DNA of 64,000 nucleotides from a virus (Duplodnaviria > Heunggongvirae > Uroviricota > Caudoviricetes), in the IMG/VR virus record IMGVR_UViG_3300026549_002494, positions 72,468-136,467 of that record; one strand, given 5' to 3'. The notes beneath the pieces were generated by a model. That model saw nothing but the letters and a program-made list of their open reading frames with translations, made no database searches and was not told where the DNA came from. The translations under genes and the position numbers were made by a program. Below are positions 19,028 through 37,425 of the stretch, in pieces; position 1 is the stretch's first letter; each line of letters starts with the position of its first letter.

Positions 19028-19873
19028 TTGAAAGAAAAATACATAAAGAGTCCTATAAATTATATAGGCAATAAATACAAACTTATTAGTCAGATTATTC
19101 CGTTATTTCCTGATGAAATCAGCATGTTCGTTGATGTATTTGGTGGTTCAGGAACGGTTTTGATTAATACAAAAGCAGAACATTATATGTATAACGACAT
19201 AAATCCATATGTGTCAAGTATTTTTGAAGGTCTTGTAACAGAAGATACAGATGCAGTAGTAAAGAAAATAGAAGATATTATTACAGAGTATTCACTTAGC
19301 AAAACTAATAAAGAAGGATTTGAGAGACTTCGTGATGACTACAATGCCGGAAAAAACGACTGGATTACACTCTATACATTGATGTGCCACTCATTTAATC
19401 ATCAATTCAGATTCAATAATAACCATCAATATAATAGCAGCTTTGGTAAAAATCGAAGTTATTTTTCAGACAGACAGAAAGAAGACTTATATGCAATGAA
19501 GAAAAATATCAGTACAGATGTTGTATTCTCATCAAAAAGTTTTGTTGACATTGATTACTCAGACTTTGACGAACACGACTTGTTGTATTTTGATCCGCCT
19601 TATTTTGCATCTGTTGGCAATTACAATGATGGCAAAAGAGGATTTGAAGGTTGGACAGAAGAACATGAAAAGAAACTATTAGAATTATTGGACAAGTTAG
19701 ATGAACAAGAAACAAGGTGGGCTTTATCAAATAATTTGAAGTATGACAATCCGTTTTTAGATGAATGGAAAGATAAATATAAGATTCATTATTTGAATGG
19801 CGATTACGTGAACTGTAATTATCACAAAATTGACAGAAGTAAAGATGTGGAAGTATTGATTACAAATTACTAA
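19028..19873 (+). CDS. N6-adenine DNA methyltransferase, Dam-like (alpha class)
   Basis: N-terminal FxGxG (VDVFGGSGTV). C-terminal DPPY (LLYFDPPYF). TTG start. Conserved structured leader with uORF. Confidence 0.75.
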   Translation: MKEKYIKSPINYIGNKYKLISQIIPLFPDEISMFVDVFGGSGTVLINTKAEHYMYNDINPYVSSIFEGLVTEDTDAVVKKIEDIITEYSLSKTNKEGFERLRDDYNAGKNDWITLYTLMCHSFNHQFRFNNNHQYNSSFGKNRSYFSDRQKEDLYAMKKNISTDVVFSSKSFVDIDYSDFDEHDLLYFDPPYFASVGNYNDGKRGFEGWTEEHEKKLLELLDKLDEQETRWALSNNLKYDNPFLDEWKDKYKIHYLNGDYVNCNYHKIDRSKDVEVLITNY

Positions 19874-19963
19874 ATTGACATACTATATATAGTATATAAT
19901 GCAAATTTAACATACAAGATATAGACTAAAATACAGATAAAAGCATTCTTTCATTTGGAAAAT

Positions 19964-19975
19964 AGAGAATAAATA
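19964..19975 (+). promoter_or_regulatory. AGAGAATA(W)ATA recurrent upstream motif (one of 10 copies)
   Basis: Core AGAGAATA or GGAGAATA at 3076, 10226, 14438, 19964, 25097, 31078, 31978, 33025, 36673, 43894. Variant TAGAATAAA at 18964. Always intergenic and 30-130 nt upstream of a + strand gene. Confidence 0.45.
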
Positions 19976-20048
19976 AATACAAGAATAAAACAGAAAGGAA
20001 TAAAGGCGTTGCAACCGTAAGAGATATCTACCTTTCTGGTGAAGAAAA

Positions 20049-20762
20049 ATTAAATACGTTGGTAGTAAAGCAAGAGTTTCAAAAGATATTAGTAAAATTA
20101 TCAATGAAATTATCAAAAAAGAGAATATTAAAATATACATAGAGCCATTTGTTGGTGGCTCAAATATGATTGAACACATTGAATGTGAAAATAAATATGG
20201 TTATGACAATAATGAGTATTTGATTGAATTTTGGAAACAAATACAAAGCGGCTGGAATCCGTTTGATGATGTTGACATGACTAAAGATTTTTATTCTGAA
20301 GTCAAGGATAATAAAGAGGGTTATCCAAAACATATCGTAGCTTTGTGTGGTTTATGTGCTACATACAATGCCAAGTGGTTTGGTGGTTATGCAGGAATTG
20401 TACATACGAAAATGGGAACTGATAGAAACTACTATGATGAAGCAGTCAGAAATGTTTTAAAACAGAGAAACAATATTATGGATGTTATTTACGATTGCAA
20501 GTCTTATGAGGATATTGAAATCGAAGGAGCGTTGATTTATTGTGACCCTCCATATGAGGGAACAACAAAGTATAAAGATGATTTTGCCCACAAGACATAT
20601 TGGGATTGGGTTAGAAAGATGAGTAAGAAAAATATTGTACTTTGTAGCGAATATAACGCACCTGAAGACTTTGAATGTATTTGGACAAAGGAATTAACAA
20701 CTACTTTGGATAAGGCAAGTCGTAGTAAAGCGGTAGAAAAATTATTTAAGTACAATGGATAA
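20049..20762 (+). CDS. Dam-like N6-adenine DNA methyltransferase paralog lacking a canonical start codon (possible ATT start or decaying copy)
   Basis: The frame is open from 20043 and encodes motif I IEPFVGGSN upstream of the first ATG (20166). DPPY at CDPPYEG. About 70% identical to the 31160 protein. The aligned start codon ATG of the paralog is ATT here. Confidence 0.5.
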   Translation: MKYVGSKARVSKDISKIINEIIKKENIKIYIEPFVGGSNMIEHIECENKYGYDNNEYLIEFWKQIQSGWNPFDDVDMTKDFYSEVKDNKEGYPKHIVALCGLCATYNAKWFGGYAGIVHTKMGTDRNYYDEAVRNVLKQRNNIMDVIYDCKSYEDIEIEGALIYCDPPYEGTTKYKDDFAHKTYWDWVRKMSKKNIVLCSEYNAPEDFECIWTKELTTTLDKASRSKAVEKLFKYNG

Positions 20763-20806
20763 TTTTTACATAATTATTGATAAAAAGCAGATAAAAGGTT
20801 TGTTTC

Positions 20807-21310
20807 ATGGCAGAAAGTGAGATGATAAAGATATTAGAGAATAAAGATTATGAGTTATGGAATGGTGATTGTTTAGAATTGATGAAGAACATACCTGATA
20901 AATCTATTGATATGATTCTATGTGATTTACCTTATGGTACGACTGCTTGTAAATGGGATTCAATTATTCCTTTTGACAAATTATGGAAACAATATAATCG
21001 GATTATTAAAGATGATGCTGCAATAGTATTATTTGGGTCAGAGCCTTTTTCAACAGAATTAAGACATAGTAATTTAGAAATGTATAAGTATGATTGGATT
21101 TGGGATAAAAAGAAAAGTTCAAGTGCATTGAATTGTAATTATCAACCATTAAAAACACATGAAATTATTTCTGTGTTTGGTAAAATGGCAACTACATATT
21201 CAAAAAATGGCAATATGAAATACAACCCACAAGGAATAATTCCTTGTGAAAAAGTAAATAAAAGAAATTCTAATAAAGCTGATATTTTTCATAGTACTGT
21301 TGCAAAGTAG
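20807..21310 (+). pseudogene. beta-class amino-MTase N-terminal module (DPPY-like DLPYG) lacking the C-terminal FxGxG: truncated/frameshifted
   Basis: CDLPYGT motif near the N-terminus, but the ORF stops at 167 aa without motif I. A -1 frame continues open from 21295 to 21783. Confidence 0.45.
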
Positions 21311-21783
21311 GAATTCCACTGCAAGGATTAGTACATGACTTATCAAAGTTTTCGCCAGTAGAATTTTGGGAAAGTGTTAAATATTATCAAGGAGATTCAA
21401 GTCCGATTGATGCTTGTAAAAAAGATAAGGGTTGGTCGGCTGCTTGGATGCATCATAAGGGTAGAAATAAACATCACTATGAATATTGGCAGGATAATTT
21501 TGATAATGGTGGAAGTCATATCGAAATGCCGATTAAATATAAGAAAGAAATGCTTTGTGATTATCTGGGCGCTGGCAGAGCATATCATGGTAAATCATTT
21601 GATTTTGAGAAAGAATTACAGTGGTGGAATTTAAAGAAAAGCAAACCGATTGCAATGCATCCAAATGATATAGCTTTTATTGATAAATATATAAATCTGT
21701 TTTGTAAGCATAAAAACGAAGCATATGATATTAGAAAAATATTTTATCAAATTAAGAAAGAAGGTAATGCCTTATGTCAGTAG
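21295..21783 (+). CDS. possible HD-domain-like ORF continuing in the -1 frame from the MTase fragment
   Basis: The junction reads FHSTVAK / VGIPLQGLVHDLSKF (H...HD..K pattern), then His-rich MHHKGRNKHHYEYW. Confidence 0.3.
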   Translation, partial: YCCKVGIPLQGLVHDLSKFSPVEFWESVKYYQGDSSPIDACKKDKGWSAAWMHHKGRNKHHYEYWQDNFDNGGSHIEMPIKYKKEMLCDYLGAGRAYHGKSFDFEKELQWWNLKKSKPIAMHPNDIAFIDKYINLFCKHKNEAYDIRKIFYQIKKEGNALCQ

Positions 21784-22115
21784 ATTATCATATATACTCA
21801 ACTAAAACTGGCGAGTGCATTAGTAATAACCGTTATGCAGGAATGCCATTTCTTTGGAATAAAACTATTAATATAGGACATCAATGTTTGGTTGAATGGA
21901 TTGATGATACCTTTTTAGGGAAAATCAAACAATGGACAATGATTGAAAAAGTAGAGTCTTGTGATTTACAACCGACTTTTTCGGAAGATTTGATATTCTA
22001 TTATTCAAAATCTGATATTTACGAACTGCGAGATATAATGGATACAAATAAAGATGTGCTTGTGGAGTTAATGGAGAATAATAATAGTGACGGACTAATT
22101 GTTGTGATGATATAA
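21774..22115 (+). CDS. hypothetical protein
   Basis: 113-aa ORF. Confidence 0.35.
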   Translation: MSVDYHIYSTKTGECISNNRYAGMPFLWNKTINIGHQCLVEWIDDTFLGKIKQWTMIEKVESCDLQPTFSEDLIFYYSKSDIYELRDIMDTNKDVLVELMENNNSDGLIVVMI

Positions 22116-22876: not shown

Positions 22877-25066
22877 ATGAGAGTTTTACTATTATTAAGA
22901 GGTTCTGCCGGTTGTGGCAAATCAACTTGGATAGAACAAAATGGCTTAAAGCCGTACACTTTATCAGCCGATGATATTAGATTATTGTGCCAAAGTCCAC
23001 TTATGCAGGTAGATGGTACTGTCGGTATCAGTCAAGCAAATAATAATGTTACTTGGAAGACACTGTTTACATTGCTTGAAGTCAGAATGCAGAAAGGTGA
23101 GTTTACAGTTATTGATGCTACCAATTCTAAGACTTCTGAAATGAACAGGCATAAAGAGATGTGTAATACATACAGATATAGAATTTACTGTGTGGATTTC
23201 ACAGACATTCCTATTGAAGAGGTTAAGCGTAGAAATGCAAACAGAGAACCTTTAAAGAGAGTGCCTGATGAAGTGATTGACAAAATGTATTCAAGATTTA
23301 AGACACAAAAAATTCCTTCAGGTATTAAAGTTATCAAACCTGATGAACTTGATACAATTTGGATGAAAATGTTTGACTTTTCAGAATATAAAAAGATTCA
23401 TCACATAGGCGATATTCATGGTTGTAACACAGCATTGCAGAAATACCTATCCGATAATGGCGGTATCAAAGATGACGAAATGTATATCTTTACTGGTGAC
23501 TATGTTGATAGAGGTCTTGAAAATGCAGAAGTTGTAAAATTCCTTATCTCTATTTCTGACAGGAAGAATGTTCTCATGCTTGAGGGCAATCACGAAAGAT
23601 GGCTTTGGTTATATGCTAATGATTGTGTTGGTAAATCAAAAGAATTTGAATTAGTTACAAAACCACAGTTAGATGATGCAAAGATTGATAAGAAAGATAT
23701 TAGACAGTTATATAGGAAGTTTGGTCAGTGTGCTTATTACAAGTATGGAGATAATGTTTATCTTGTTACACATGCTGGGTTAAGTACAATGCCTGACAAC
23801 CTATCTTATGTTGCGACAGAACAGATGATTAAAGGTGTAGGTAATTACAACGACTTTGAAAAGATTGCCGAAACCTTTATAAATACCACTTCTGACAACG
23901 TTTATCAAATTCACGGACACAGAAATACAAAAGCACTGCCCGTAAAAGTGAATGACAGGGTTTATAATCTTGAAGGTCGAGTTGAATTTGGCGGTTGTTT
24001 AAGATGTGTACAGGTTGACAAAGACGGCATTCGTACCATCGAGGTTGAAAATGAAGTGTTTAAGACCCCTGAGATGAGAAGCGAACAGACCGTAACAAGT
24101 AGTTCAGTAGCTGATACAATTATAGCACTGCGTTCTAATAAGTACATTCAAGAAAAGAAATTTGGCAATATTTCATCTTTCAATTTTACAAACAAAGCTT
24201 TCTACGATAAGGTTTGGGATGAGCAGACTACAAAAGCAAGAGGTTTGTATATTGATACGAAAAAGGGCAAAGTTGTTGCAAGAGCATATGAGAAGTTCTT
24301 TAATATTAATGAAAGACCTGAAACTAAGTTTGATATGTTGCAATATAAACTTCGGTTCCCAGTAACAGCTTATGTAAAAGAAAATGGTTTCTTAGGTATT
24401 GTAAGTTATAACGAATATGAAGATGATTTGTTTATAGCAAGTAAATCCACCATTGATAGTCAGTTTGCACAGTGGTTCAAAGAGATGTTATATAGTAAGA
24501 TTTCCTCTGATAACATTAGTAAGATGAAGCAGTTTATCAAAGAAAATGACGTATCGTTTGTGTTTGAATGTGTTGATATGAAGAACGATCCTCACATTAT
24601 TGAATATCCAAAGAGCGCATTATTCCTACTTGATATTGTTAAGAACGATATGAATTTCGAGAAGTTTGAATACGAAGCGATGGTTGATATTGCAAATCAG
24701 CTTGGCATTACTCCAAAAGAAAAGGCAATCGAAATTGCTACTTGGCAGGACTTCTTTGATTGGTATTATGACATATTAGAAGAAGACTATGAATACAATG
24801 GACGAAAAATTGAGGGTTTTGTTATTGAAGATAGCGTAGGATATATGACCAAACTCAAGCTTACATACTATAACTTCTGGAAGTTTATGAGAAGTATTTC
24901 TCATGAGGCAATTAAGAATGGCTATATCAAAAAGACATCTGCTTTGACAACTCCGACAGCAAAGGAGTATTATGCATGGGTTAGAAAGCTTCATGACGTA
25001 GAAGATAAAGACAGTTTGCCAAAAGATATTTGTACTTTGAGAAGACTATTCTATAAAGATAGGTGA
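22877..25066 (+). CDS. Pnkp-like trifunctional RNA repair enzyme: polynucleotide 5'-kinase / 2',3'-phosphoesterase / ligase-like adenylyltransferase
   Basis: P-loop LLRGSAGCGKST. Calcineurin-like phosphoesterase motifs GDIHG, GDYVDRG, GNHE. C-terminal nucleotidyltransferase motif I YVKENGFLG (KxNG), as in bacterial Pnkp ligase domains. Confidence 0.7.
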   Translation: MRVLLLLRGSAGCGKSTWIEQNGLKPYTLSADDIRLLCQSPLMQVDGTVGISQANNNVTWKTLFTLLEVRMQKGEFTVIDATNSKTSEMNRHKEMCNTYRYRIYCVDFTDIPIEEVKRRNANREPLKRVPDEVIDKMYSRFKTQKIPSGIKVIKPDELDTIWMKMFDFSEYKKIHHIGDIHGCNTALQKYLSDNGGIKDDEMYIFTGDYVDRGLENAEVVKFLISISDRKNVLMLEGNHERWLWLYANDCVGKSKEFELVTKPQLDDAKIDKKDIRQLYRKFGQCAYYKYGDNVYLVTHAGLSTMPDNLSYVATEQMIKGVGNYNDFEKIAETFINTTSDNVYQIHGHRNTKALPVKVNDRVYNLEGRVEFGGCLRCVQVDKDGIRTIEVENEVFKTPEMRSEQTVTSSSVADTIIALRSNKYIQEKKFGNISSFNFTNKAFYDKVWDEQTTKARGLYIDTKKGKVVARAYEKFFNINERPETKFDMLQYKLRFPVTAYVKENGFLGIVSYNEYEDDLFIASKSTIDSQFAQWFKEMLYSKISSDNISKMKQFIKENDVSFVFECVDMKNDPHIIEYPKSALFLLDIVKNDMNFEKFEYEAMVDIANQLGITPKEKAIEIATWQDFFDWYYDILEEDYEYNGRKIEGFVIEDSVGYMTKLKLTYYNFWKFMRSISHEAIKNGYIKKTSALTTPTAKEYYAWVRKLHDVEDKDSLPKDICTLRRLFYKDR

Positions 25067-25104
25067 TGGAATTTGAGTTTAATTGACAAATAAGAAAGAG
25101 AATA

Positions 25105-25440
25105 TCTAAATAGACGGTTCCGCTAAGCTCCAGTCATTTCGATGGCAAAGAAATGCAGTGATTGTGGCGCAGATTAAATCGTGAGCAGTTAAGGGTCCAC
25201 AGCCGTCACAAGGTGCTATCTTTACATAATAGTTAAATGTCCAGTAAGGCTAAGGTGCTATGGTGCTCACATAGACCGACAGAGGAAACAGCCTAATATT
25301 TTATATGGGATAGCAACTCAAATGGCAGAGGAATTGGTAAACCTCAGACGCAGAAAGCTTCCAATTTATATTAAAAATTATGAGCAGGAGAATGTAAATG
25401 ATTTTTGTCGATATTAAAAATATCAAGAATAACGATGAAA
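25105..25440 (+). ncRNA. candidate structured non-coding RNA (GC-rich island inside the RNA-repair cassette)
   Basis: About 340 nt with no RBS-bearing ORF. GC about 45% against a 32% background. Upstream TTGACA (25083) plus an AGAGAATA motif (25097). Internal repeats AAGGTGCTAT x2. Confidence 0.25.
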
Positions 25441-25524
25441 ATAAATTTTCAATGGAGAATAAATAAACATAACTAAATACGAAAGGAGTATGAGTGCCGG
25501 CTTAATCTCATGAGGCTCTGAGTA

Positions 25525-26262
25525 GTGAATTTGAAAGGAAACAAAATTGGTGAAGAGCATCTGATTTTTAATGAAAACGCAATGGATGTTCTTGATTTTA
25601 TGATTAACAAGGGCAAGAAAGTTGATATGATTTTCACAGACCCACCTTATAAAATAACTTCCCGTGGTAATGGCGGAAATTCCGGTGGAATGTTCCAAAA
25701 GAAAGAAGTTAATAACGGAAAGGTTTTTTCGGTCAATAATTTAGAAATAGAAGATTGGCTACCTAAATTTTTTGAAGTCTTAAAAGACGATTCTCATTGT
25801 TATATTATGACCAACAACAAAAATATCACGCATTATCTTGATGTTATAAACAAGTCCGATTTTCATTTTGTCAAATGTCTCATATGGGTTAAAGATAATA
25901 AGATTATGGGTCAGTCCTATATGAGTCAATTCGAGTACATAATTATGCTCCGCAAAGGTTCTCATAAGAGAATTAATAATTGCGGAACAAGTGATGTTTT
26001 ACAGATTCCAAACAAAAAATTAAAGGGTGAAGATGGGAAAACCATTCACGACACCGAAAAACCAGTAATGCTTACGGATATTCTCGTTGAAAATTCATCA
26101 AATGAGGGAGACACAATTTTGGATCCGTTTATGGGTATTGGTGGATGTGGTGTAAGTGCGGCAAAGTTAAAACGAAAATTCATTGGTTGTGAATTGGAGA
26201 ATAGATATTATGATGTCTCCCAGCAGAGAATTAACGATGCAGTAGGAGAGAACTGCTATTAA
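25525..26262 (+). CDS. beta-class N6A/N4C DNA methyltransferase
   Basis: N-terminal FTDPPY, C-terminal DPFMGIGGCG (FxGxG). GTG start. Leader homologous to that of the 19028 gene. Confidence 0.7.
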   Translation: MNLKGNKIGEEHLIFNENAMDVLDFMINKGKKVDMIFTDPPYKITSRGNGGNSGGMFQKKEVNNGKVFSVNNLEIEDWLPKFFEVLKDDSHCYIMTNNKNITHYLDVINKSDFHFVKCLIWVKDNKIMGQSYMSQFEYIIMLRKGSHKRINNCGTSDVLQIPNKKLKGEDGKTIHDTEKPVMLTDILVENSSNEGDTILDPFMGIGGCGVSAAKLKRKFIGCELENRYYDVSQQRINDAVGENCY

Positions 26263-26297
26263 TGAAAGCAGGGTTTCATTAATAAAATGGAGGTGAT

Positions 26298-27329
26298 TTG
26301 ATGAATATTTCTGAAATTAAAGCAGAGATTAAGAAGCCTGAATATGACTTTTTAGAGAAAAATGAGCATTTAGGTAAGAATATTATCCTGCTTGGCTTAG
26401 GTGGCTCTCATGCATACGGCACAAACACAGAAACATCTGATTTGGATATTAGAGGTTGTGCGTTAAATCGTAAGAATGAAATCCTTACAAATGAGAATTT
26501 TGAGCAGTTTGTAAACGAAGAAACCGACACAACAATCTATTCTTTCAACAAACTTATCTCTTTGTTAAGTAACTGTAATCCAAATACGATTGAGATTTTA
26601 GGTTTAAAACCTGAACACTACTTATATTTGTCGCCAATAGGTCAAGAATTACTTGATAAAAGAAAATTATTTTTGTCAAGAAGAGCGGCCCATTCTTTTG
26701 GTGGGTATGCAACCGCACAATTAAGACGGCTCGACAACAAAGCGGCTCGACTTGTAGACCAATCTCAGCAAGAAAAACATATTCTTGGTAGTATTCAAAA
26801 TGCTATGTATGATTATAAACGTAGATACTTTGAATTTGAAGATGATGCTATTAAGTTGTATGTTGATAAAGCAGTTCAAGAAGGATATGATACTGAAATC
26901 TTTATGGATATAAATTTACACCACTATCCGCTTCGTGACTACAAATCTATGTGGTCAGAAATGAATAATGTTATTAAAGATTATTCAAAGATAGGCAAGA
27001 GAAATCAGAATGCTATCGAGCATGGGAAACTTGCAAAACATATGATGCATCTTATTAGGCTTTACATTATGTGTCTTGACATCTTGGAACGAGAAGAAAT
27101 CGTTACTTATAGAGAAAAAGAACACGATTTTCTTATGAGCATCCGAAATGGAGAGTTTTTGGATGATAATAGGCAGCCTATCCCAGAGTTTTTTGAAATG
27201 GTAGATGAGTTTGAAAAGAAACTTGAATATGCAAAAGCAAATACGTCACTAAAAGATAATCCTGATTATAAGGCTATCAATGAATTTGTAATGAGTGTCA
27301 ATGAGAGGGTGGTAAAGGGTGAAGTTTAA
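26298..27329 (+). CDS. Pol-beta superfamily nucleotidyltransferase (predicted RNA-repair-associated NTase)
   Basis: GS...D.D signature LGLGGSHAYGTNTETSDLDIRG. Translationally coupled (overlap) with the CCA-adding enzyme gene. Confidence 0.5.
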   Translation: MMNISEIKAEIKKPEYDFLEKNEHLGKNIILLGLGGSHAYGTNTETSDLDIRGCALNRKNEILTNENFEQFVNEETDTTIYSFNKLISLLSNCNPNTIEILGLKPEHYLYLSPIGQELLDKRKLFLSRRAAHSFGGYATAQLRRLDNKAARLVDQSQQEKHILGSIQNAMYDYKRRYFEFEDDAIKLYVDKAVQEGYDTEIFMDINLHHYPLRDYKSMWSEMNNVIKDYSKIGKRNQNAIEHGKLAKHMMHLIRLYIMCLDILEREEIVTYREKEHDFLMSIRNGEFLDDNRQPIPEFFEMVDEFEKKLEYAKANTSLKDNPDYKAINEFVMSVNERVVKGEV

Positions 27330-28665
27330 TATTAATATTCCTGACGGAGCCAATCTTCTCATTCACGCCCTTCAGGACAACGGATATTCCGCTTATGTTG
27401 TAGGCGGTTGTGTCCGGGATAGTATATTGGGTAGAGAACCACATGACTGGGATATATGCACATCTGCCACTCCTGAGCAAATGCTTGAAGTTTTTAAGGA
27501 TAGACGAGTCATCGAAACCGGATTACAACACGGTACTATTACAGTAGTAGTTGATAAAATTCCATATGAAATTACGACTTATAGAATAGACGGAGATTAT
27601 TCAGACAATCGAAGACCCGATAGTGTAACCTTTACAGATAATCTCATCGAAGATTTGAAACGTAGAGATTTTACTATAAATGCAATAGCTTATAACGATG
27701 CACAAGGTTTGGTTGATCCGTTTCATGGAATTGAAGATATTGAATGTGGGAAGATACAGTGTGTCGGCTCTGCAAAAGAGCGATTTAACGAGGATGCTTT
27801 GAGAATTTTAAGAGCAATTCGATTTGCTTCTCAGCTTGAATTTAGTATTGAGCCGGAAACAGATTGGCAAATTCATCAACTCTATAAAAATTTAGAGAAT
27901 ATATCAGTAGAGAGAATTAACGGTGAATTCTGCAAAATTGCATCGTTTGATAACTTTTGTGTAGAACTCTTGCTTTATAAAGATGTGTTCTCTTTATTTA
28001 TCCCAGAATTAAAAGGCATGATTGATTTTCCTCAAAATAACCCTTGGCACATTTACAATGTGTTTGACCATACGATACACGCTGTTGCCGAATGTGGTTC
28101 AAAGGATTTAATTACAAGACTTGCAGTGTTATTTCACGATTTCGGAAAGCCTCATTCCTATCAGGATGGAGAAGATGGCATTAGACATTTCAAGGGTCAT
28201 GCAAAAGTCAGTGCAGATATGACAGATTCAATCATGAAACGATTGAGATTTGATAACGATACAAGAAACAAGGTTGTTGAGTTGGTACAATATCACGATG
28301 CTACATTTTCAGTCGGTAAGAAATATGTCAAAAAATGGCTTAATAAGATTGGTGAAAAACAGTTTAGGCGATTAATTAAATTAAAAGAGGCAGATAACAA
28401 AGCTCAGAACTTGGAACGTTCCAACGAAAGAATTGGAGAGTTACACGAAATTGAGTCTCTTATAGATGAAGTTTTGAAAGAGCAGGAGTGTTTTTCTCTA
28501 AAGGATTTGGCTGTTAAGGGAGAAGATTTAATCAATATCGGTTATAAACCTGGAAGAGCGTTAGGTGCCGCATTGAGAGGATTGCTTGATTGCGTTATAG
28601 CCGAAGAAGTGGAGAATAATAAAGTAGAGTTATTAAAGTTGGCAAGTAAATGGTTGCCACGATAA
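27319..28665 (+). CDS. cca: tRNA nucleotidyltransferase (CCA-adding enzyme) with HD domain
   Basis: Head-domain motif VVGGCVRDSILGREPHDWDICT. C-terminal HD region VLFHDFGKP. Confidence 0.8.
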   Translation: MKFNINIPDGANLLIHALQDNGYSAYVVGGCVRDSILGREPHDWDICTSATPEQMLEVFKDRRVIETGLQHGTITVVVDKIPYEITTYRIDGDYSDNRRPDSVTFTDNLIEDLKRRDFTINAIAYNDAQGLVDPFHGIEDIECGKIQCVGSAKERFNEDALRILRAIRFASQLEFSIEPETDWQIHQLYKNLENISVERINGEFCKIASFDNFCVELLLYKDVFSLFIPELKGMIDFPQNNPWHIYNVFDHTIHAVAECGSKDLITRLAVLFHDFGKPHSYQDGEDGIRHFKGHAKVSADMTDSIMKRLRFDNDTRNKVVELVQYHDATFSVGKKYVKKWLNKIGEKQFRRLIKLKEADNKAQNLERSNERIGELHEIESLIDEVLKEQECFSLKDLAVKGEDLINIGYKPGRALGAALRGLLDCVIAEEVENNKVELLKLASKWLPR

Positions 28666-30488: not shown

Positions 30489-30719
30489 ATGACACGAGAT
30501 TTTCTTGGTAACGAGATTAAAGTAGGCGACAAAGTTGTTGCTATGAGATATAGAGGAACATCCGCACTTTTGTATGAGGGAATTGTAGAAAAAGTCTCTC
30601 CTAAAACTGTTTGTGTTAGGAAGAAATACAAGGGGTATGACTGGGGAATGCATGATGTTATGAGAGTTGATTCTGGGAAAGTTGTTGTTATAAATGATAT
30701 AGCAATAAAGGAAGAATAA
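30489..30719 (+). CDS. hypothetical protein
   Basis: 76-aa ORF. Confidence 0.35.
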   Translation: MTRDFLGNEIKVGDKVVAMRYRGTSALLYEGIVEKVSPKTVCVRKKYKGYDWGMHDVMRVDSGKVVVINDIAIKEE

Positions 30720-30720
30720 A

Positions 30721-31086
30721 ATGAGTAAAGAAAAGACAATGAAACTTTACGCAGTTAGAGATAAAAGCACAGGTAAATTTGTAAGCGACATAACAAATCC
30801 AAGACATAAGTTTTGGGAGAAGAAAGGCTCTTGTGAATCTGCCATTAAGTCATACAGTCCTTCAAGAGTTACGCCGGGTAGTCATAGAACAAAAAGAAAC
30901 AAGGAATATTTAGAACTTGTTGAACTGACTTGTGTAGACAGCAATTACATAATTGATGATATTGGCTATGTTTCTGACTGGTATCAAAGTAGCATCGATG
31001 ATACAAAACCGCCTGTATGGACAGACGAGCATATTGAAGAATTGTTGAAAGATTTTATCTTAATTCCGAGAACGGATGGAGAATAA
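30721..31086 (+). CDS. hypothetical protein
   Basis: 121-aa ORF. Confidence 0.35.
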   Translation: MSKEKTMKLYAVRDKSTGKFVSDITNPRHKFWEKKGSCESAIKSYSPSRVTPGSHRTKRNKEYLELVELTCVDSNYIIDDIGYVSDWYQSSIDDTKPPVWTDEHIEELLKDFILIPRTDGE

Positions 31087-31159
31087 TTAAATATAAGAAT
31101 AAAACAGAAAGGAATAAAGTGTAGCTACTGTAAACCATATGGACTTTCTGGTGAAGTAA

Positions 31160-31909
31160 TTGAAATACATGGGAAGTAAAAGTCGGATTGCGAAACATAT
31201 CGTGCCGATTATACAAAAGTATATAGATGAAAATAGTATTACTACATACATTGAACCCTTTGTAGGCGGTGCTAATGTAATTGATAAGATTAAATGCGAA
31301 AACAAGCTCGGCTCAGACTTGAACAGATATTTGATTGCGTTGCTGAGACACGTAAGAGATGGTAATGATTTATATGAAGGTGTGCCAAAAGATCTTTACG
31401 ACAAGGCGAGAACGGCATTTAACAACGGAGACACTTTTGAATTTGAGGATTGGGAGATTGGAAATATTGGGTTTATCGCATCATATAACGGCAGGTGGTT
31501 TGACGGCGGTTATGCAAAGCCGGGATATGAAAAGACCAAGAACGGTGAAAGGTATAGAGACTATTATCGTGAAGCAAAGGATAACCTTATGGAACAAGCA
31601 CCTAATCTAAAAGGTATACGGTTTATACACGAAGATTACCGAAGTTATGAGCCTAACGGATGTTTAATATACTGCGACCCACCATATGCAAATTCAAAGC
31701 AGTATGCTAATGCGACCAAGTTTAACTATGATGAATTTTGGAACACGATGAGAGAGTGGTCAAAAGATAACATAGTTCTTATTAGTGAACAAATCGCACC
31801 TGATGATTTTGAATGCATATGGGAAAAAGAATTGACAACGACACTTGATAAGAATAGTAGAAGTTCGGCCGTTGAAAAACTATTCGTGTACAAATCACAC
31901 AATATATAG
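31160..31909 (+). CDS. Dam-like N6-adenine DNA methyltransferase
   Basis: N-terminal MKYMGSKSR and IEPFVGGAN (motif I). DPPY at CDPPYAN. Preceded by a 6-codon uORF MDFLVK. Confidence 0.75.
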   Translation: MKYMGSKSRIAKHIVPIIQKYIDENSITTYIEPFVGGANVIDKIKCENKLGSDLNRYLIALLRHVRDGNDLYEGVPKDLYDKARTAFNNGDTFEFEDWEIGNIGFIASYNGRWFDGGYAKPGYEKTKNGERYRDYYREAKDNLMEQAPNLKGIRFIHEDYRSYEPNGCLIYCDPPYANSKQYANATKFNYDEFWNTMREWSKDNIVLISEQIAPDDFECIWEKELTTTLDKNSRSSAVEKLFVYKSHNI

Positions 31910-32005
31910 TATTAATACATTAAAACAAACACAATATACAGTATTGAGTTTTCAATGAAACTTTTGTTTCATTGAACAGAGAATAATATAATAAACGCAG
32001 TAGTT

Positions 32006-32995
32006 GTGAAAATAAAGGAGGATGAAAAATTATTGAATAACGGATTAAATGTTTTAAGCCTATGTGACGGCATGAGCTGTGGACACATCGCATTAGACAA
32101 AGCTGGATATACAATAAACAAATATTTTGCGGCGGAAATTAAGGACATTGCTATCAAAGTAACAAAAGATAATTATCCAAACACAATTTATATTGGAGAT
32201 GTGAATAAAGTTACATATAAAGATGGGGTACTACATACAGAGACTGGAGATTTTAAGATAAAAATTGATATTGTAATGTTCGGAAGTCCATGTCAGAGTT
32301 TTTCCAGAGCAATGATTAAAGAAAAAAAGATTGGACTTGAAGATCCTAAGCGTTCTGGGTTATTTTATGAGTGCAATAGAGTTTTAAGAGAAGTCAACCC
32401 AAAATATTTCCTTATGGAAAATGTAGTAATGAAGTCAGACGATGAAAAAATTATCAGTGACATGATGGGGGTGCATCCAATTAGGATCAATTCTTCTCTA
32501 ATAACGGCACAGCTAAGAGATAGATATTATTGGACTAATATTCCAAATGTTTCAATTCCGGAAAATAAAAATATTACATTACAAGATGTTTTACTTGATG
32601 GTTATGTTCCGAATGAAAAAGCTAAGTGTTTGTGCAAAAACGACTCTCATGGATATTATAACGGTTGTAATTGGACACCAATTAAAAGATTTCATAGATT
32701 TTGGTATAAATCATTTGGCACTATGGTATTTCCTTCAAAAGAATATTTTGATAACTGCATAGAAATAACAAAGAGGATATTGGACGGTAGAAAATCTTCT
32801 GCAAAATTGTATGATGATTATATTGGACATGATTTTGATAACGCAAGATATTTGTGGAAAGAAGAAAGGGCAAGACTGCAATCTGTACCAGAAGGATATG
32901 TAAAAAACTTATCCGAAAAAGAAGCGGCTGATGTACTGGGAGATGGATGGACTGTTGATGTAATTGCTCATATACTTAGTTTTATGGAGTTTTGA
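32006..32995 (+). CDS. C5-cytosine DNA methyltransferase (Dcm-like)
   Basis: Motif I-like LSLCDGMSCG. PCQ motif FGSPCQSFSRA. ENV. Probable true start TTG at 32033, 11 nt after AAAGGAGGA. Confidence 0.7.
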   Translation: MKIKEDEKLLNNGLNVLSLCDGMSCGHIALDKAGYTINKYFAAEIKDIAIKVTKDNYPNTIYIGDVNKVTYKDGVLHTETGDFKIKIDIVMFGSPCQSFSRAMIKEKKIGLEDPKRSGLFYECNRVLREVNPKYFLMENVVMKSDDEKIISDMMGVHPIRINSSLITAQLRDRYYWTNIPNVSIPENKNITLQDVLLDGYVPNEKAKCLCKNDSHGYYNGCNWTPIKRFHRFWYKSFGTMVFPSKEYFDNCIEITKRILDGRKSSAKLYDDYIGHDFDNARYLWKEERARLQSVPEGYVKNLSEKEAADVLGDGWTVDVIAHILSFMEF

Positions 32996-33133
32996 AAATT
33001 TAATAAGACACTTATTTTATCGAACAGAGAATAAATACATTAAACACAGCAGTTGCAAATGCTGTGAAATAACAGAAAGGAATAAACAGTAACACCGGTT
33101 AAAAAGATTACGTAATCCCTGTAAGGGTATATT

Positions 33134-34627
33134 TTGAAAAAAGAAAAATTAACAGCAAATATTTTATTTTCCGGAATCGGCTGTCAAGAGCGTGGATTCC
33201 AAAATTCTAATCTATTTGATTTAGAGGTCTTAAATACATCTGACATCTGTAAAGAGTCCGTCTTATCCTATGCTGCCATTCATTGTGGACTGACAAATGA
33301 AATGGTAGAAAATTATCCCGATTATCCTTCGAGAGAAGAAATGGCAAAAGAATTAACAGAGATTAATTTAGGTTATGAGCCTGAAAAAGATAAGTGTTTT
33401 GACTGGGCTAAGTTGGTAAAAAGAAAAAATAAAGATCTTGAAAAATATTGGTTGGCAAATAAATTGTCACATAATTTGGGTGATATAAGTAAAATTGAAG
33501 AATTACCGTATGCTGATTTGTGGACTTGCAGTTTTTGTTGTCAGGACATCAGCGTCGCTGGCAAAATGAAAGGCTTAAATCCCGATAGTGGTACTCGCAG
33601 CAGTTTGCTTTGGGAAAATATTCGTCTGCTTAAAAAAGCAAGAGATAATAATATTTCTCCAAAATATATTATGTTTGAAAATGTTAAAAATCTTGTAAGT
33701 AAAAGATTTATAGACGATTTTAATAATTTACTTGAAGTCCTTGATGAACTTGGTTTTAATTCATACTGGAAGGTACTTAATGCAAAAGAATGTGGAGTCC
33801 CACAAAATAGAGAAAGAGTATTTGTTATAAGTATCCGTAAAGATATTGATAAAAATACATTTTACTTTCCGTCACCGTTTGATAACGGATTAAGATTAAA
33901 AGATGTTCTCGAAGAAGTTGTTGATGAGAAATACTATTTATCAGATGATAAAGTTGAGAAGTTTAAGAAGAATTTCAATATTGAAAGCGATAGTGTTACT
34001 ACTCGCAATGCTGACATAGCTTCTTGTATTAGAGCAACTTATTATAAGAATGGTTCAAGAAATATATGTGAAAACATTGAAAATGGGAAAGGTTACGAGG
34101 GTGTAGTTGAAGTTTCTCCTAACAGAGAATATAAAATAGGTAACGTATATAATCCAAAGCATACCGGCGGCAGTTTCGCAGGAAATGTATATGATAAAAG
34201 GGGCTTATGCCCAGCTTTATCTACTATGCAAGGTGGCGGCAGACAGCCTCACGTGGTAACGGGATTAGTTTCTAATAAGGGTGAAAAGTTTGAGAAGCAA
34301 ACAGATTTTGCAAATACTCTTCTTGCAAGAGATTACAAAGGCTTTGGTAATCAGCAAATGAATTGTATAGTTTACACAGATGATATACGAATCCGTAAGC
34401 TTACACCCAGAGAGTGCTATGTTTTGATGGGTCTTACTTTTGAAGATTGTGACAAGGCGGCAGAAATAGGAGTTACGAATACTCATCTTTATAAACAGGC
34501 TGGTAATGGCATTGTTACGAACTGTGTTGAACTTATAGCAGAGCATTTGTATAAAGCACAGTATGATAATACATATGTATGCACCGATGAGAAGATGGCA
34601 AATTTTATGAACTCACAGTCGGAATAA
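33134..34627 (+). CDS. C5-cytosine DNA methyltransferase
   Basis: LFSGIGCQE (motif I), FCCQDISVAG (catalytic Cys region), ENVKNL (motif VI), QAGNG (motif X). TTG start. Confidence 0.7.
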   Translation: MKKEKLTANILFSGIGCQERGFQNSNLFDLEVLNTSDICKESVLSYAAIHCGLTNEMVENYPDYPSREEMAKELTEINLGYEPEKDKCFDWAKLVKRKNKDLEKYWLANKLSHNLGDISKIEELPYADLWTCSFCCQDISVAGKMKGLNPDSGTRSSLLWENIRLLKKARDNNISPKYIMFENVKNLVSKRFIDDFNNLLEVLDELGFNSYWKVLNAKECGVPQNRERVFVISIRKDIDKNTFYFPSPFDNGLRLKDVLEEVVDEKYYLSDDKVEKFKKNFNIESDSVTTRNADIASCIRATYYKNGSRNICENIENGKGYEGVVEVSPNREYKIGNVYNPKHTGGSFAGNVYDKRGLCPALSTMQGGGRQPHVVTGLVSNKGEKFEKQTDFANTLLARDYKGFGNQQMNCIVYTDDIRIRKLTPRECYVLMGLTFEDCDKAAEIGVTNTHLYKQAGNGIVTNCVELIAEHLYKAQYDNTYVCTDEKMANFMNSQSE

Positions 34628-34813
34628 ATTCTGACTGTGGAAAGGTTTACGGAGCTACCATGAGAGGTAGATACAATCCCGATGGCTCTACATCACAAAA
34701 TTTGGAGTTAAATGGAGAAGAAATAAGCAATGCAATAACAACTGTCGGAAAAGATAGTTTGGTGGTTATTGGAATGAAATAACTTTTTCATCTGCTATCA
34801 AATAACAGGAGGA

Positions 34814-35095
34814 ATGTTTATGAACTTGGACTTAAGTGAAAGAATTAGCAACAAAGCTTGCGGAAAAAGATATAAGGTCGAATGTCGAATAGAAAATCAG
34901 CCTTTTTGGATAACGGGGATATTAATTAACTATAACAGCGGTAATCTCGATCTTCTGACAGATGACGATTGTGTAATACACATACCATATAGTGGTTTGA
35001 GATGGCTGCTTCCAGCGAATAAGACGGCTACTAAGCACGAAACTGTAATGTCAAAAGAGGAAATGTTAGAACTTATGAGAGATGAAATAAGGTAG
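34814..35095 (+). CDS. hypothetical protein
   Basis: 93-aa ORF, AGGAGG RBS. Confidence 0.35.
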   Translation: MFMNLDLSERISNKACGKRYKVECRIENQPFWITGILINYNSGNLDLLTDDDCVIHIPYSGLRWLLPANKTATKHETVMSKEEMLELMRDEIR

Positions 35096-35105
35096 GAGGT
35101 AATTA

Positions 35106-35441
35106 ATGTTATATCCTAAAATTAATTGGAAGAAATTTGATAAAAACAATCCGCCACCGGATTTAGATACAGAGACGCAATGCCTCATATTTCTCCGTGA
35201 AAGATGTGGCAAGAAAGAACGATGGAACTATTGGGTTGATACAGCAACTCCACATGGTCATTATCTTAATGATTTTTGGGACACAGAAAATTATTGGATT
35301 GAAGGTCAGAACGATATTGAAGTTCTTGCATATGCAGAGCTTGGGCACATTGCGAAATCAAATATTATAAAACAAAACGAATATGAACAAGTGCTCTCAT
35401 CAAAAGATGGACGAACGAAAATATATATTACAAAGGAGTGA
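35106..35441 (+). CDS. hypothetical protein
   Basis: 111-aa ORF. Confidence 0.35.
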   Translation: MLYPKINWKKFDKNNPPPDLDTETQCLIFLRERCGKKERWNYWVDTATPHGHYLNDFWDTENYWIEGQNDIEVLAYAELGHIAKSNIIKQNEYEQVLSSKDGRTKIYITKE

Positions 35442-35653
35442 TGAAATGGACGATGGGACTATGAGAGGTCGCAGGGTATTCAATCATCCTTGGGATGATG
35501 ATTGGCAAATATCTCTTTCAAAAAAAGAATTGGATGAAATCATTTATCCTTTCAGTAAAAACGAAAAAACAAGACAATAATGGAGAATTAATATATGTGA
35601 GTAGTTCAAAACTACCTCACGTAAAATAAAAAAAAGAAAGGAAGATAAAAATA

Positions 35654-36424
35654 ATGAAAAAAATAATTATAGCAATAGTAACAGGTTTAGTAATAATCGG
35701 AGTAATATTTTCTTTGAAAATAGTGCCCACGGGACATACCGGTGTAGTGATACATACAGGTGCTGTTAGCAATAAAGTACTTTCGGAAGGATTACATTTT
35801 AAAACGCCTATTATAACACGTATATATAACATGGACAACCGCATTGTGAGAACCGATGTAGACATTTCAAGTTCTTCAAAGGATTTACAGGTAATCACGG
35901 GGACGATTTCAGTTAATTATAGGGTGGCTCCTGAAAAATCAGCGGAACTCTACAAGAATGTTGGTAAGAAATATGAAGAAATAATTATTCGCCCGGCGGT
36001 TCAGGAAACTACTAAGGGTGTTATGGCACAGTATACGGCTGAGGATTTAACAATAGAGCGTCAGACCGTAGGCAATGCAATGAAAAAAGCATTGGAAGAA
36101 AAGATTAAGGGTTATGGTTTAGATGTTGAAGCTTTGAATATTATTGATTTTGATTTCTCGGAAGAGTTTAATAAAGCTATCGAAGCAAAGCAGACGGCAC
36201 AGCAAAACGCATTAAAGGCTGAACAGGATTTGGCTCGTATAAAAATTGAGGCAGAACAGAAAGTCGAGCAGGCGAAAGCTGAAGCGGAAACATATCGTTT
36301 GCAGAATCAAGAGATTACAGATAAGACACTTGCGTTAAAATATTTGGAAAAGTGGGACGGCAAGCTTCCGACGGTAACATCTAATGGACAGAATATTTTA
36401 GATATTAATAGTATTTTAAAGTAA
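35654..36424 (+). CDS. SPFH/band-7/prohibitin-domain membrane protein (HflC/K-like)
   Basis: N-terminal TM helix, PHB-domain-like core, C-terminal A/E/K/Q coiled coil (AEQDLARIKIEAEQKVEQAKAEAE). Confidence 0.7.
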   Translation: MKKIIIAIVTGLVIIGVIFSLKIVPTGHTGVVIHTGAVSNKVLSEGLHFKTPIITRIYNMDNRIVRTDVDISSSSKDLQVITGTISVNYRVAPEKSAELYKNVGKKYEEIIIRPAVQETTKGVMAQYTAEDLTIERQTVGNAMKKALEEKIKGYGLDVEALNIIDFDFSEEFNKAIEAKQTAQQNALKAEQDLARIKIEAEQKVEQAKAEAETYRLQNQEITDKTLALKYLEKWDGKLPTVTSNGQNILDINSILK

Positions 36425-36437
36425 GGAGGATTATAAT

Positions 36438-36656
36438 ATGAAGAAGTTTAGAGTAACACAGGATTTGGATTATGTTAAAGGGTATTTGAGATATGGGCAT
36501 AAAGAAGGTATTGTCGAAGTTGAATCTGAGGATGAGCTAAAAGAAATGGTTGAAACTGGAGAAATATTTGATTATATGCATGTCAAAGTAGATGATTATT
36601 CAATCGAAGATTATGATGATGGCGGCAATAAGGTTAAGTGGGAGCAAATTGATTGA
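36438..36656 (+). CDS. hypothetical acidic small protein
   Basis: 72-aa ORF, GGAGG RBS. Confidence 0.3.
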   Translation: MKKFRVTQDLDYVKGYLRYGHKEGIVEVESEDELKEMVETGEIFDYMHVKVDDYSIEDYDDGGNKVKWEQID

Positions 36657-36753
36657 AATCTGTCTTTCATTTGGAGAATAAATAATTGTAAATATTAAAA
36701 GAAAGGATAAAAGTTCACGTGAGTAAAGCTGCGCAGCTACTATTGGTGAACAA

Positions 36754-37425
36754 ATGAGTAGTACAAATAGAAGTAATGCGAGAAATGAACATATATCAGA
36801 CTATTATATTACTCCCATTGCAGATATTGAATTATTTCTTGAAAAATTTAACGAGTTTTATCCTCTGGATTGGAAACATTCTAAAATTTTAGATCCTTGT
36901 GCCGGCGGTAATCTTGAAACACGAGATGAACACGGCATTAAAGAGGCGTATCATCCGATGAGTTATTCCACAGCAATACATAATGTGTTCAGAGAGTGTA
37001 ATGTGAACAATATTGATATCCGCTCTGATTCGCTCGCCGAAACAAAAGGTGATTATTTGACTATGGATGTTAAGAAATTTCAGCCTGATATTATAATCAC
37101 GAATCCGCCGTTTAATTTGGCAGTTCCAATAATCGAAAAGGCTATTGAAGATGTGTCGGATAATGGATATGTGATTATGCTACTTAGGCTGAATTTCTTT
37201 GGCAGTCAAAGCAGAGAAGAATTTTTCAAAAAATATATGCCGGAATCCGTATTTGTACACCATATAAGAATTGGTTTTACAGATAAAAAAGACAGTAATG
37301 GGTATACGGTTTTCGATAAAGACGGAAATCCCAGACGCGGAAGTACAGATTCGATTGAGTATATGCATGCGGTTTGGAATAAGAATAATTTGCAGCCGAG
37401 TTATACGAAATTAATATTGATATGA
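36754..37425 (+). CDS. N6-adenine DNA methyltransferase (gamma-class, NPPF)
   Basis: ILDPCAGGN (motif I-like) followed by IIITNPPF (motif IV). Confidence 0.6.
   Translation: MSSTNRSNARNEHISDYYITPIADIELFLEKFNEFYPLDWKHSKILDPCAGGNLETRDEHGIKEAYHPMSYSTAIHNVFRECNVNNIDIRSDSLAETKGDYLTMDVKKFQPDIIITNPPFNLAVPIIEKAIEDVSDNGYVIMLLRLNFFGSQSREEFFKKYMPESVFVHHIRIGFTDKKDSNGYTVFDKDGNPRRGSTDSIEYMHAVWNKNNLQPSYTKLILI

Follow-up and report, generated by a model that had tools for sequence, protein, structure and literature searches.

A shared two-palindrome leader precedes six of eight DNA methyltransferase genes in an 18-kb island of a phage contig

The 64,000-nucleotide (nt) stretch analysed here, hereafter the window, corresponds to positions 72,468 to 136,467 of the IMG/VR record IMGVR_UViG_3300026549_002494 (Caudoviricetes) and is part of a 238,608-bp metagenomic contig. 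Between positions 19028 and 37425 it carries a battery of DNA methyltransferase (MTase) genes, most of which are fronted by a common leader element containing two palindromes. Open reading frame (ORF) listing and translation revealed eight + strand ORFs with DNA MTase signatures in this interval, all eight of which match PHROG families annotated as DNA methyltransferase (E 1e-30 to 1e-68) and six of which exceed a Pfam gathering score. A six-frame scan for DPPY, NPPF and PCQ motifs revealed no further MTase in the 64-kb window, which is the span covered by our gene census. Eight such matches within 18 kb cannot be a product of chance. The coordinates, the strand and the four classes of the original prediction, which had counted at least eight MTase genes, were thereby borne out, and the count of intact genes falls to seven: three D12 (alpha-class), one beta-class, two C5 and one gamma-like gene are full-length, and the eighth is a beta-class remnant. 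The MTase ORFs are the following, with lengths in amino acids (aa):

19028..19873, + strand: D12 (alpha-class) N6-adenine DNA MTase, T4 Dam-like, 281 aa, TTG start, with DPPY and VFGGSG.
20049..20762, + strand: D12 MTase paralogue, 237 aa, ATT start (phrog_56, E 1.2e-30).
20807..21310, + strand: truncated beta-class MTase, 167 aa, DLPY present (PF01555 19 bits, below cut-off).
25525..26262, + strand: beta-class N6-adenine/N4-cytosine DNA MTase, 245 aa, DPPY near the N terminus and DPFMGIGG near the C terminus.
31160..31909, + strand: D12 MTase paralogue, 249 aa, TTG start (PF02086 64.5 bits; phrog_56, E 9.9e-40).
32006..32995, + strand: C5-cytosine DNA MTase, 329 aa, with SPCQSFS, ENV, QLRDR and GDGWTV motifs.
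33134..34627, + strand: C5-cytosine DNA MTase, 497 aa (PF00145 182.8 bits).
36754..37425, + strand: gamma-like amino-MTase, 223 aa, DPCAGGN followed by NPPF (phrog_799, E 5e-42).

The most unusual feature of the region, missed in the original prediction, is a leader of 65-110 nt that lies directly upstream of six of the eight genes and is absent at the remnant 20807 and at the C5 gene 32006. It combines a Shine-Dalgarno (SD)-like GAAAGGA box with two perfect palindromes of variable sequence, which a short closing stem encloses; a second SD comes next, and the start codon is usually other than ATG. The six copies in the window, which fall into several types, are:

18962..19027, + strand: variant-2 leader; TAGAAT, SD-like GAAAGGAG (18977), odd palindrome GGCAGCC (18990), TTAAA, palindrome GAAATTTC (19002), GCTCTGAGTAAT, TTG.
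19964..20048, + strand: X/Y/A-family leader; AGAGAATAA, CAGAAAGG (19991), palindrome 1 GTTGCAAC (20008), TAAG, palindrome 2 AGATATCT (20022), CCTTTCTG (20031), GGTGAA.
25454..25524, + strand: variant-2 leader; GGAGAATAA, GAAAGGAG (25481), palindrome 1 GCCGGC (25496), TTAAT, palindrome 2 CTCATGAG (25507), GCTCTGAGTAGT.
31078..31159, + strand: X-type leader; GGAGAATAA, CAGAAAGG (31105), palindrome 1 GTAGCTAC (31121), TGTAAA, palindrome 2 CCATATGG (31135), CTTTCTG, GGTGAAGTAA, TTG.
33026..33133, + strand: C5b-type leader; AGAGAATAA, a hairpin at 33045-33066, CAGAAAGG (33073), palindrome 1 ACCGGT (33094), 12-nt palindrome 2 GATTACGTAATC (33106), CCCTGTAAGGG, TTG.
36673..36753, + strand: Z-type leader; GGAGAATAA, AGAAAGGA (36700), palindrome 1 TCACGTGA (36715), GTAA, 12-nt palindrome 2 AGCTGCGCAGCT (36727), GGTGAAC, ATG.

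Comparison with the other genes of the window revealed that this arrangement is particular to the MTase genes. Palindromes of at least 8 nt occur within 70 nt upstream of the start in 6/8 MTase genes versus 12/80 others (Fisher P 7e-4), two of them occur together in 3/8 versus 0/80, and the MTase upstream regions hold nine such palindromes against 1.2 expected (Poisson P 4e-6). In ordinary window genes the GAAAGGA sequence is a plain SD, 7-12 nt before the start; ahead of the MTase genes its distance to the start is 45-55 nt, and a second SD stands in between. Non-ATG starts are used by six of the eight MTase genes and by at most 24 of 79 other genes (P 0.018). The leaders of the two D12 paralogues 20049 and 31160 are nearly the same over ~60 nt, both with the order CAGAAAGG, A-rich spacer, palindrome 1, TAA, palindrome 2, CCTTTCTG, GGTGAA, start.

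Two components of the leader vary in sequence and keep their complementarity. The closing stems differ from family to family (CAGAAAGG/CCTTTCTG, CGGAG/CTCCG, GAGT/GCTC and ACAG/CTGT) and remain complementary, the GAGT/GCTC stem of the 19028 leader with a U.G wobble. All five imperfect pairs (in the leaders of 19028 and 25525 and of the related loci L093, L165 and L039) are G:T on the sense strand, an outcome with a probability of ~0.03 if G:T and A:C mismatches were equally likely. The palindromes vary by symmetric double substitutions that include the two central bases (AGATATCT to AGAATTCT, GCGC to GTAC, CCGG to CTAG). Among 16 distinct variants of palindrome 2, 64/64 positions are Watson-Crick and all four pair types are found at every position, including the innermost adjacent pair; as the 8-mers were selected as palindromes, this figure describes the variation rather than tests it, the test being the enrichment statistics above.

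A further motif, (A/G)GAGAATAA or TAGAATAA, stands upstream of seven MTase genes (at 18962, 19964, 25454, 31078, 31978, 33026 and 36673). It holds a -10-like hexamer (GAGAAT or TAGAAT), lacks an evident -35 element and, in four of the window leaders, precedes the SD-like box by exactly 27 nt, a spacing that varies in other contigs. It may represent an activator-dependent promoter. Sigma-70 promoters in or just upstream of the leaders were rejected, consensus scans giving no more sites than in shuffled sequences. Both C5 genes also have a hairpin upstream: one at 31953-31974 before 32006 (9 bp, CAATGAAAC/GTTTCATTG, 4-nt loop, with AGAGAATAA at 31978) and one at 33045-33066 before 33134 (CACAGC/GCTGTG, 10-nt loop, beside AGAGAATAA). 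These hairpins could be terminators of the preceding genes or extra leader elements.

To determine what the leader precedes elsewhere, we relied on a pattern-only search of viral, metagenome and genome collections, keeping matches with two 8-nt palindromes. This yielded 58 distinct leader-plus-ORF cases, and in 57 of them the downstream ORF is an MTase homologue: 33 D12, 16 from two beta subfamilies, six gamma-like and two C5. Because the leader fronts MTases of four unrelated classes in 57/58 cases, we argue that these phages regulate "methyltransferase" as a functional category. One palindrome pair, GTAGCTAC with GACATGTC, fronts six different MTase families. The leader at 31078-31159 is 98.9% identical to that of locus L188 and 97.8% identical to that of L190 (91-92 nt), where it precedes two different beta-class genes that are 74-79% identical to their window counterparts; being 98-99% identical before other MTase classes, the leader is a portable module, better conserved than the genes it serves.

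Other leader types of the window also have relatives: the C5b type in L018 and L062, with the symmetric changes ACCGGT to ACTAGT and ATATGCGCATAT to ATATGTACATAT; the Z type in L065 and L027, where the homologous leader fronts a D12a-type MTase and carries TCACAGTGA and ACCTGCGCAGGT; and variant 2 in L007, L027 and L039. A nhmmer profile of the X/Y/A family, built from other contigs only with the window left out, recovers just the two D12-paralogue leaders (19964, E 5.7e-13; 31078, E 5.8e-13), and a single profile for all six window leaders was rejected on this account. Rfam 15, which includes the SAM/SAH riboswitches and small ribozymes, gave no match at gathering scores in the whole window, and, when scanned permissively, the two D12-paralogue leaders and 25050-25540, the segment with the 25454-25524 leader, gave chance-level matches only (E 0.5-8). 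Limited literature searches found no description of such an MTase-gene leader and, for counted phage MTase batteries, only one gut-phage survey (PMC10477858). On these searches the leader is undescribed and fits no known family or mechanism; it matters more than the battery itself.

How firmly the individual genes can be assigned differs between classes. All three D12 genes share the order N-terminal S-adenosylmethionine (AdoMet) motif, variable region, DPPY, the AdoMet motifs being VFGGSG (19028), PFVGGS (20049) and PFVGGA (31160). The first of them scores 118.8 bits against PF02086 (cut-off 22), is the only one of the three to pass TIGR00571 (dam; 139.9 bits, above cut-off) and matches T4 Dam (1yfj) over its full length (E 6.9e-35), and the 20166-20762 part of 20049, a partial ORF, reaches 24.2 bits against PF02086. 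The beta-class enzyme 25525 covers positions 1-220 of the 221 of PF01555 (108.1 bits, cut-off 26.7) and matches 5hek 'DpnA' (E 6.6e-21) and CcrM 6pbd (E 5.7e-20) in the PDB. Both C5 genes are above the PF00145 cut-off and contain motifs I, IV, VI (ENV), VIII (QxRxR) and X; 32006 scores 94.9 bits over profile positions 2-319 of 324, and 33134 has an insertion of ~90 aa between motifs I and IV and a long variable region (~200 aa). Motif IV of 33134 reads FCCQ instead of FPCQ, so that the catalytic Cys is kept and the Pro replaced. A sequencing error is excluded by L055, whose enzyme is 58% identical and has the same change, whereas FPCQ or FPCT is found in other relatives. The best phage matches of 33134 are generic C5 MTases at 32-39% identity, and it is not nearer to the SPbeta-group enzymes.

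The gamma-like protein 36754 has no Pfam or NCBIfam match above cut-off and belongs to a family of ~1900 members that are mostly annotated as hypothetical proteins. NPPF (N117 P118 P119 F120) and DxxxGG are invariant across 24 homologues, and an alignment-based AlphaFold model (predicted local distance difference test 90.0, predicted template modelling score 0.87) retrieved class I AdoMet MTases as best PDB matches with Foldseek, including M.BseCI, M.TaqI and CamA (E 2e-6 to 1e-5); the tRNA m6A enzyme TrmM scores equally well as the DNA enzymes. DNA is the predicted substrate because of the phrog_799 match, occasional PF05869 matches among the homologues and the shared MTase leader, and 36754 is probably an N6-adenine DNA MTase.

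The second D12 gene is intact only when ATT serves as its start: its frame is open from 20043, after a TGA, the codon at 20049 is ATT, and the first ATG, GTG or TTG (20166) falls downstream of the FVGGSN AdoMet motif. Among 19 D12 relatives with the same leader, nine start with TTG, five with ATT, three with ATA and two with ATG. A weak start is thus normal in this group (ATT or ATA in 8/19), and 20049 is therefore probably functional. The description of 20807 as a degenerate fragment proved right, its C-terminal AdoMet-binding half being absent: in tblastn it aligns only with residues 6-123 of 246-aa homologues (full-length homologues have 246-258 aa and end HPTQKP...CxGSG), and the missing half (HPTQKP, FxGxG) was found in no nearby frame. 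We presume from this truncation that 20807 is inactive. Next to it lies an N-terminally truncated DUF5662 frame (21316-21783), whose first start codon comes at 21448 and which aligns with positions 30-155 of the 156 in the profile; one deletion, with its junction at ~21311, probably took both the 3' half of 20807 and the 5' end of the DUF5662 gene. Two of the Dam-like genes had been taken for recent paralogues of about 70% identity. We measured 45% (111/246) for 20049 versus 31160, with high conservation over the 60 N-terminal and the 45 C-terminal residues and divergence in between, a mosaic rather than a pair of recent duplicates.

We then asked how exceptional the battery is. A survey of 8848 gut phages found MTase genes in 34% of them, with a single MTase in 72% of the phages that had any (PMC10477858), and seven intact MTase genes lie far out in this distribution. 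A protein search with 31160 found 63 related IMG/VR loci, mostly on contigs of 50-310 kb, and tblastn with the eight window proteins indicated that the clusters of relatives reach ~5 MTase genes per 12.7-kb locus (up to seven separate matches per locus, some of them pieces of one gene). The unusual density claimed for the region holds against the gut-phage survey. The region is not unique, as relatives carry clusters of the same families: the battery is a large example of a lineage trait and a known kind of system. The same families recur in relatives in different orders, the D12-then-beta tandem (20049 then 20807) is conserved in 48 related loci, and in 101 leader-bearing loci the window genes held in common are mainly MTases (each in 7-57 loci); apart from these, a single window ORF, an RNA ligase/Pnkp gene, is present in more than four (10 loci). 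A conserved regulator gene was rejected on the same data. Because families are reordered, paralogues keep their ends and swap their middles, and a ~90-nt leader fronts different classes, the comparison shows an island built and reshuffled by cassette exchange among related phages. MTase genes of relatives are also often split or truncated (L015, L016, L036, L049, L064 and L186, including frameshifted beta and D12 genes), and the annotation of the isolated Enterocloster phage CB473P3 lists its D12 gene as two hypothetical proteins. Such genes may decay often or be switched on and off, or the breaks may be assembly errors.

The composition of the window bears the marks of restriction. The observed/expected ratios are 0.07 for CTAG, 0.10 for GGCC, 0.25 for CGCG, 0.26 for GATC and 0.52 for CATG, and CCWGG, GGNCC and GGWCC occur only 2, 2 and 1 times, respectively. 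Palindromes of at least 8 nt number 135, compared to 194-230 in shuffled sequences. The four most avoided tetramers (CTAG, GGCC, CGCG and GATC) are absent from the twelve leader palindromes of the window. This genome is under heavy restriction pressure.

Regarding its identity, the 497-aa C5 enzyme 33134 is present residue for residue on the ENA metagenome contig ERZ27252065 k141_167722 (238,608 bp) and on the Logan contig SRR7971122_9817, which ends where a copy of IS110 sits in the window and thus suggests a repeated or polymorphic insertion. The window encodes a DnaB-like helicase, a primase, an exonuclease, a DNA polymerase III alpha subunit, a RecD-like exonuclease V, an NAD ligase and NrdD. 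Its replication module is SPbeta-like (YorF/I/J/L homologues), and its polymerase III alpha shares 52% identity with the counterpart in Clostridium botulinum phage c-st, which occupies a near-equal map position. GenBank holds no phage that is close at the DNA level; c-st, the closest sequenced relative, has a single MTase in the syntenic region. Bacterial genomes that bear the leader are mostly Clostridia (Roseburia sp., Kineothrix, Eubacterium segne, Eubacteriales), with one Treponema metagenome-assembled genome; cultured carriers include Roseburia sp. 1XD42-69 (NZ_RAZG01000001.1) and Eubacterium segne BX4 (NZ_JACOOZ010000003.1). Given these carriers and the c-st/SPbeta-like genes, the contig derives from a large temperate phage or phage-plasmid of gut Clostridia, its host probably belonging to the Lachnospiraceae. 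Other features of the window that are relevant here are:

6052-7062: tyrosine integrase.
12444-13601: TnpB-type nuclease gene (OrfB_IS605, Cas12f1-like TNB and HTH), transposon-associated.
15918-17444: DUF262/GmrSD_N protein, 508 aa, 1.6 kb upstream of the first MTase gene, with a weak PADLOC match to NsnA.
22877-25066: kinase-phosphatase-T4-type RNA ligase (Pnkp) fusion, 729 aa.
26298-27329: RlaP nucleotidyltransferase.
27319-28665: CCA-adding enzyme with an HD domain.
38173-39390, - strand: IS110 transposase (DEDD_Tnp_IS110 and Transposase_20), just past the island.

The genes that lie between the MTases also include an SPFH protein and ClpP. The RNA-repair cluster (22877-28665) probably counters host anticodon nucleases; if so, the entire 19-38 kb stretch would be a counter-defence island. 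The ~370-nt non-coding segment 25067-25440, between the RNA ligase gene and the 25525 leader, seems richer in G+C than its surroundings and may be a decayed gene; a structured RNA in it was rejected (fold z-score +1.08, no Rfam match). The 76-aa ORF 30489-30719 (DUF7205 in the precomputed annotation) weakly resembles, at a sub-threshold score (E 5e-4), a phage ProQ C-terminal-like domain; a leader lies two genes downstream of it, and it could be an RNA-binding factor. The protein at 15918-17444 could be a nuclease that depends on modification or the product of a defence gene carried by the phage.

We consider it quite probable that the region is a cassette-built counter-restriction island, with leader-controlled MTases, in a c-st/SPbeta-like phage or phage-plasmid of gut Clostridia of at least 238 kb. 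The seven predicted orphan MTases would methylate the replicating phage genome at several short motifs, depositing N6-methyladenine, 5-methylcytosine and possibly N4-methylcytosine, which would make the progeny DNA resistant to the diverse Type I-III restriction enzymes met in one host after another. The phage also drops some sites outright, as with the strongly depleted CTAG, GGCC, CGCG, GATC, CCWGG and GGNCC. The leader would restrain translation of the MTases, which could be harmful if expressed from a prophage. The "methylome shield" of the original prediction is in this sense one that we, too, infer from gene content. As for the leader, the likeliest interpretation, to which we give moderate credence, is a structured mRNA region that restrains or co-ordinates MTase translation, because a closing stem is found in every family, the imperfect pairs are without exception G:T, the ribosome-binding site directly adjoins the element and most of the starts are non-ATG.

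Several observations pull the other way. An RNA hairpin does not account for self-complementarity that runs through the centre of the palindromes, as the innermost pair cannot pair in a hairpin, and the leaders fold only weakly at minimum free energy (-8 to -13.5 kcal/mol). With the well-sampled family, four of the window's six leaders have the architecture in common but no detectable sequence similarity. GATC is strongly avoided despite the T4 Dam-like 19028; if this enzyme methylates GATC, the avoidance needs a separate cause, and the pattern hints at methyl-dependent, DpnI-like host enzymes or, alternatively, at a non-GATC specificity of 19028. The active enzymes may number fewer than seven, judging from the Cys that replaces the conserved Pro of the PC motif in 33134 and from the ATT start that 20049 needs. 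Finally, domain searches cannot exclude restriction endonucleases, which diverge too far for that, and 64 kb of the 238-kb genome were covered.

Next after a structured mRNA leader ranks a methylation-sensitive operator at the DNA level, which we regard as possible, if rather unlikely: the palindromes would be targets of the MTases of the battery or of the host, and either their methylation or the binding of these enzymes would feed back on the transcription of every MTase gene, much as with the two GANTC sites in the Caulobacter ccrM leader or the GATC sites ahead of Mu mom. As the symmetric changes run through the centre, the dyad would be read on double-stranded DNA, and all variants are perfect dyads. 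Different flanks surround the same 6-bp cores (GAATTC, CATATG, TGCGCA, TCATGA, TGTACA and TTGCAA), which are of the kind seen in Type II sites and suggest methylation or restriction sites; several type Y leaders have an 8-mer without extended arms, whose RNA hairpin would be 2-3 bp; and palindromes are depleted elsewhere in the window and enriched in the leaders. On the other hand, no promoter-like hexamers overlap the palindromes, leaving no obvious route for an effect of methylation, the G:T pairs on the sense strand and the U.G wobbles of the closing stems fit RNA, and the six window leaders hold more distinct cores than there are MTases. The palindromes are not the downstream enzyme's own target either, since one pair can stand before as many as six MTase families and enzymes that are 70-74% identical have different pairs; autoregulation through an own site, as in CfrBI, was rejected for this reason. 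The leader and the N terminus recombine with different variable regions, and the site does not co-vary with the enzyme downstream. The two lines of evidence could be reconciled if function needs a symmetric structure and restriction pressure forces its symmetric re-coding.

Three further candidates for the leader were rejected: a conserved upstream ORF, as start and stop positions differ between variants on manual reading; an invertible segment from CAGAAAGG to CCTTTCTG, as sequences of the palindrome 2 type are never in first position; and mRNA self-dimerisation through the palindromes, as the cofold gain was larger than in at least 95% of shuffles for only 3/7 leaders. A more speculative extension, which we hold to be unlikely, is that the leader constitutes a new class of cis-regulatory switch for DNA MTase genes, either an RNA three-way junction that senses AdoMet or S-adenosylhomocysteine or binds a phage factor, or a dual DNA/RNA methylation reader. 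If true, the phage would gain feedback control over its whole anti-restriction battery.

It is improbable, in our estimation, that the MTases instead belong to restriction-modification or other defence systems with unrecognised endonucleases encoded by small ORFs nearby or elsewhere in the 238-kb genome, the island serving to exclude competing phages. In keeping with the original prediction that no restriction endonuclease is adjacent, domain searches and PADLOC detected no restriction endonuclease or nuclease domain in the ORFs neighbouring the MTases, a negative result to be read with the proviso that endonucleases can escape profile searches. A cognate endonuclease gene beside the MTase, which defines Type II restriction-modification, was likewise not seen in domain searches, where absence of a match is not proof. 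Endonucleases are hard to detect by sequence, 15 ORFs of 72-170 aa in the region have no accepted family match, the DUF262/GmrSD_N protein matches NsnA weakly, and most gut-phage MTases best match non-orphan REBASE enzymes (PMC10477858). Against this, every MTase neighbour is either smaller than 171 aa or has another assigned function, the leader loci share little beyond MTases, and seven restriction-modification systems with seven undetected endonucleases would not be parsimonious. We therefore accept "orphan" as a working description of these predicted enzymes.

Equally doubtful is the notion that the MTases are mainly epigenetic regulators of expression, replication timing or lysis-lysogeny, like Dam and CcrM: the element is temperate or plasmid-like, with its integrase and with c-st, a plasmid prophage, as closest known relative, and the dedicated leader shows special expression control, but regulation does not require seven enzymes of four classes, rapid cassette turnover with swapping of variable regions is typical of an arms race, and restriction pressure is demonstrably real, given how strongly this genome avoids restriction sites.

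Orphan MTases are already known to help phages escape restriction, and the battery mainly adds an extreme and well-documented example, in which the MTase genes of large phages of Clostridia (probably Lachnospiraceae) behave as exchangeable cassettes. Once found, the signal behind the leader would reveal how protection is weighed by a phage against the burden of methylating its host, and it could provide a regulatory part for gut Firmicutes. The puzzle lies in its palindromes, whose dyad symmetry is strictly held and whose sequence is free.

Solitary anti-restriction MTases of phages are known from T4 (Dam), P1 (Dmt) and the SPbeta, phi3T and SPR phages (C5 MTases), with one or two per phage or one multispecific enzyme. 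The enzymes described here are likewise without an endonuclease, whereas they number seven separate proteins of four classes. The multispecific SPbeta-group enzymes (M.SPRI, M.Phi3TI and M.SPBetaI) are marked by several tandem target-recognition domains; 33134 has a long variable region and the identity to phage C5 enzymes given above. Chloroviruses and giant viruses have large MTase arsenals (~18 MTase genes in NY-2A), many paired with site-specific endonucleases; they resemble the present phage in having many MTase classes per genome and differ from it in infecting eukaryotes, and we know of no shared leader element described for their MTases. The order D12-then-beta of 20049 and 20807 recalls the DpnII cassette (DpnM, D12; DpnA, beta), but here there is no DpnB-like endonuclease, the beta partner is truncated and GATC is avoided. 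Moreover, DpnM (2dpm) matches 19028 (E 3.4e-9), a D12 gene outside the tandem, and the 5hek 'DpnA' match, 25525, belongs to a different beta subfamily than 20807.

The leader itself has parallels in the control of other modification and anti-defence genes. Transcription of Mu mom is Dam-dependent, through upstream GATC sites, and its leader hairpin is bound by Com; the Caulobacter ccrM leader contains two GANTC sites; and Aca2 binds the same inverted repeats in DNA and mRNA. Common to these systems and ours is a dedicated dyad-symmetric leader beside the ribosome-binding site of a gene that is potentially harmful or time-critical. Their sequences are not similar, however, and our analysis turned up no candidate regulator; as the palindromes of the window leaders differ by gene and by phage, a single sequence-specific binder cannot explain them. 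Firmicutes also possess SD-like stabilisers at the 5' end of mRNAs, namely the STAB-SD of cryIIIA and the polypurine stabiliser of phage SP82 early RNA. The strong SD-like GAAAGGAG, 45-55 nt upstream of the real start and with no start codon after it, is like STAB-SD, whereas the box of the X/Y/A leaders is predicted to pair with CCTTTCTG, and the element described here is restricted to MTase genes and always comprises two palindromes.

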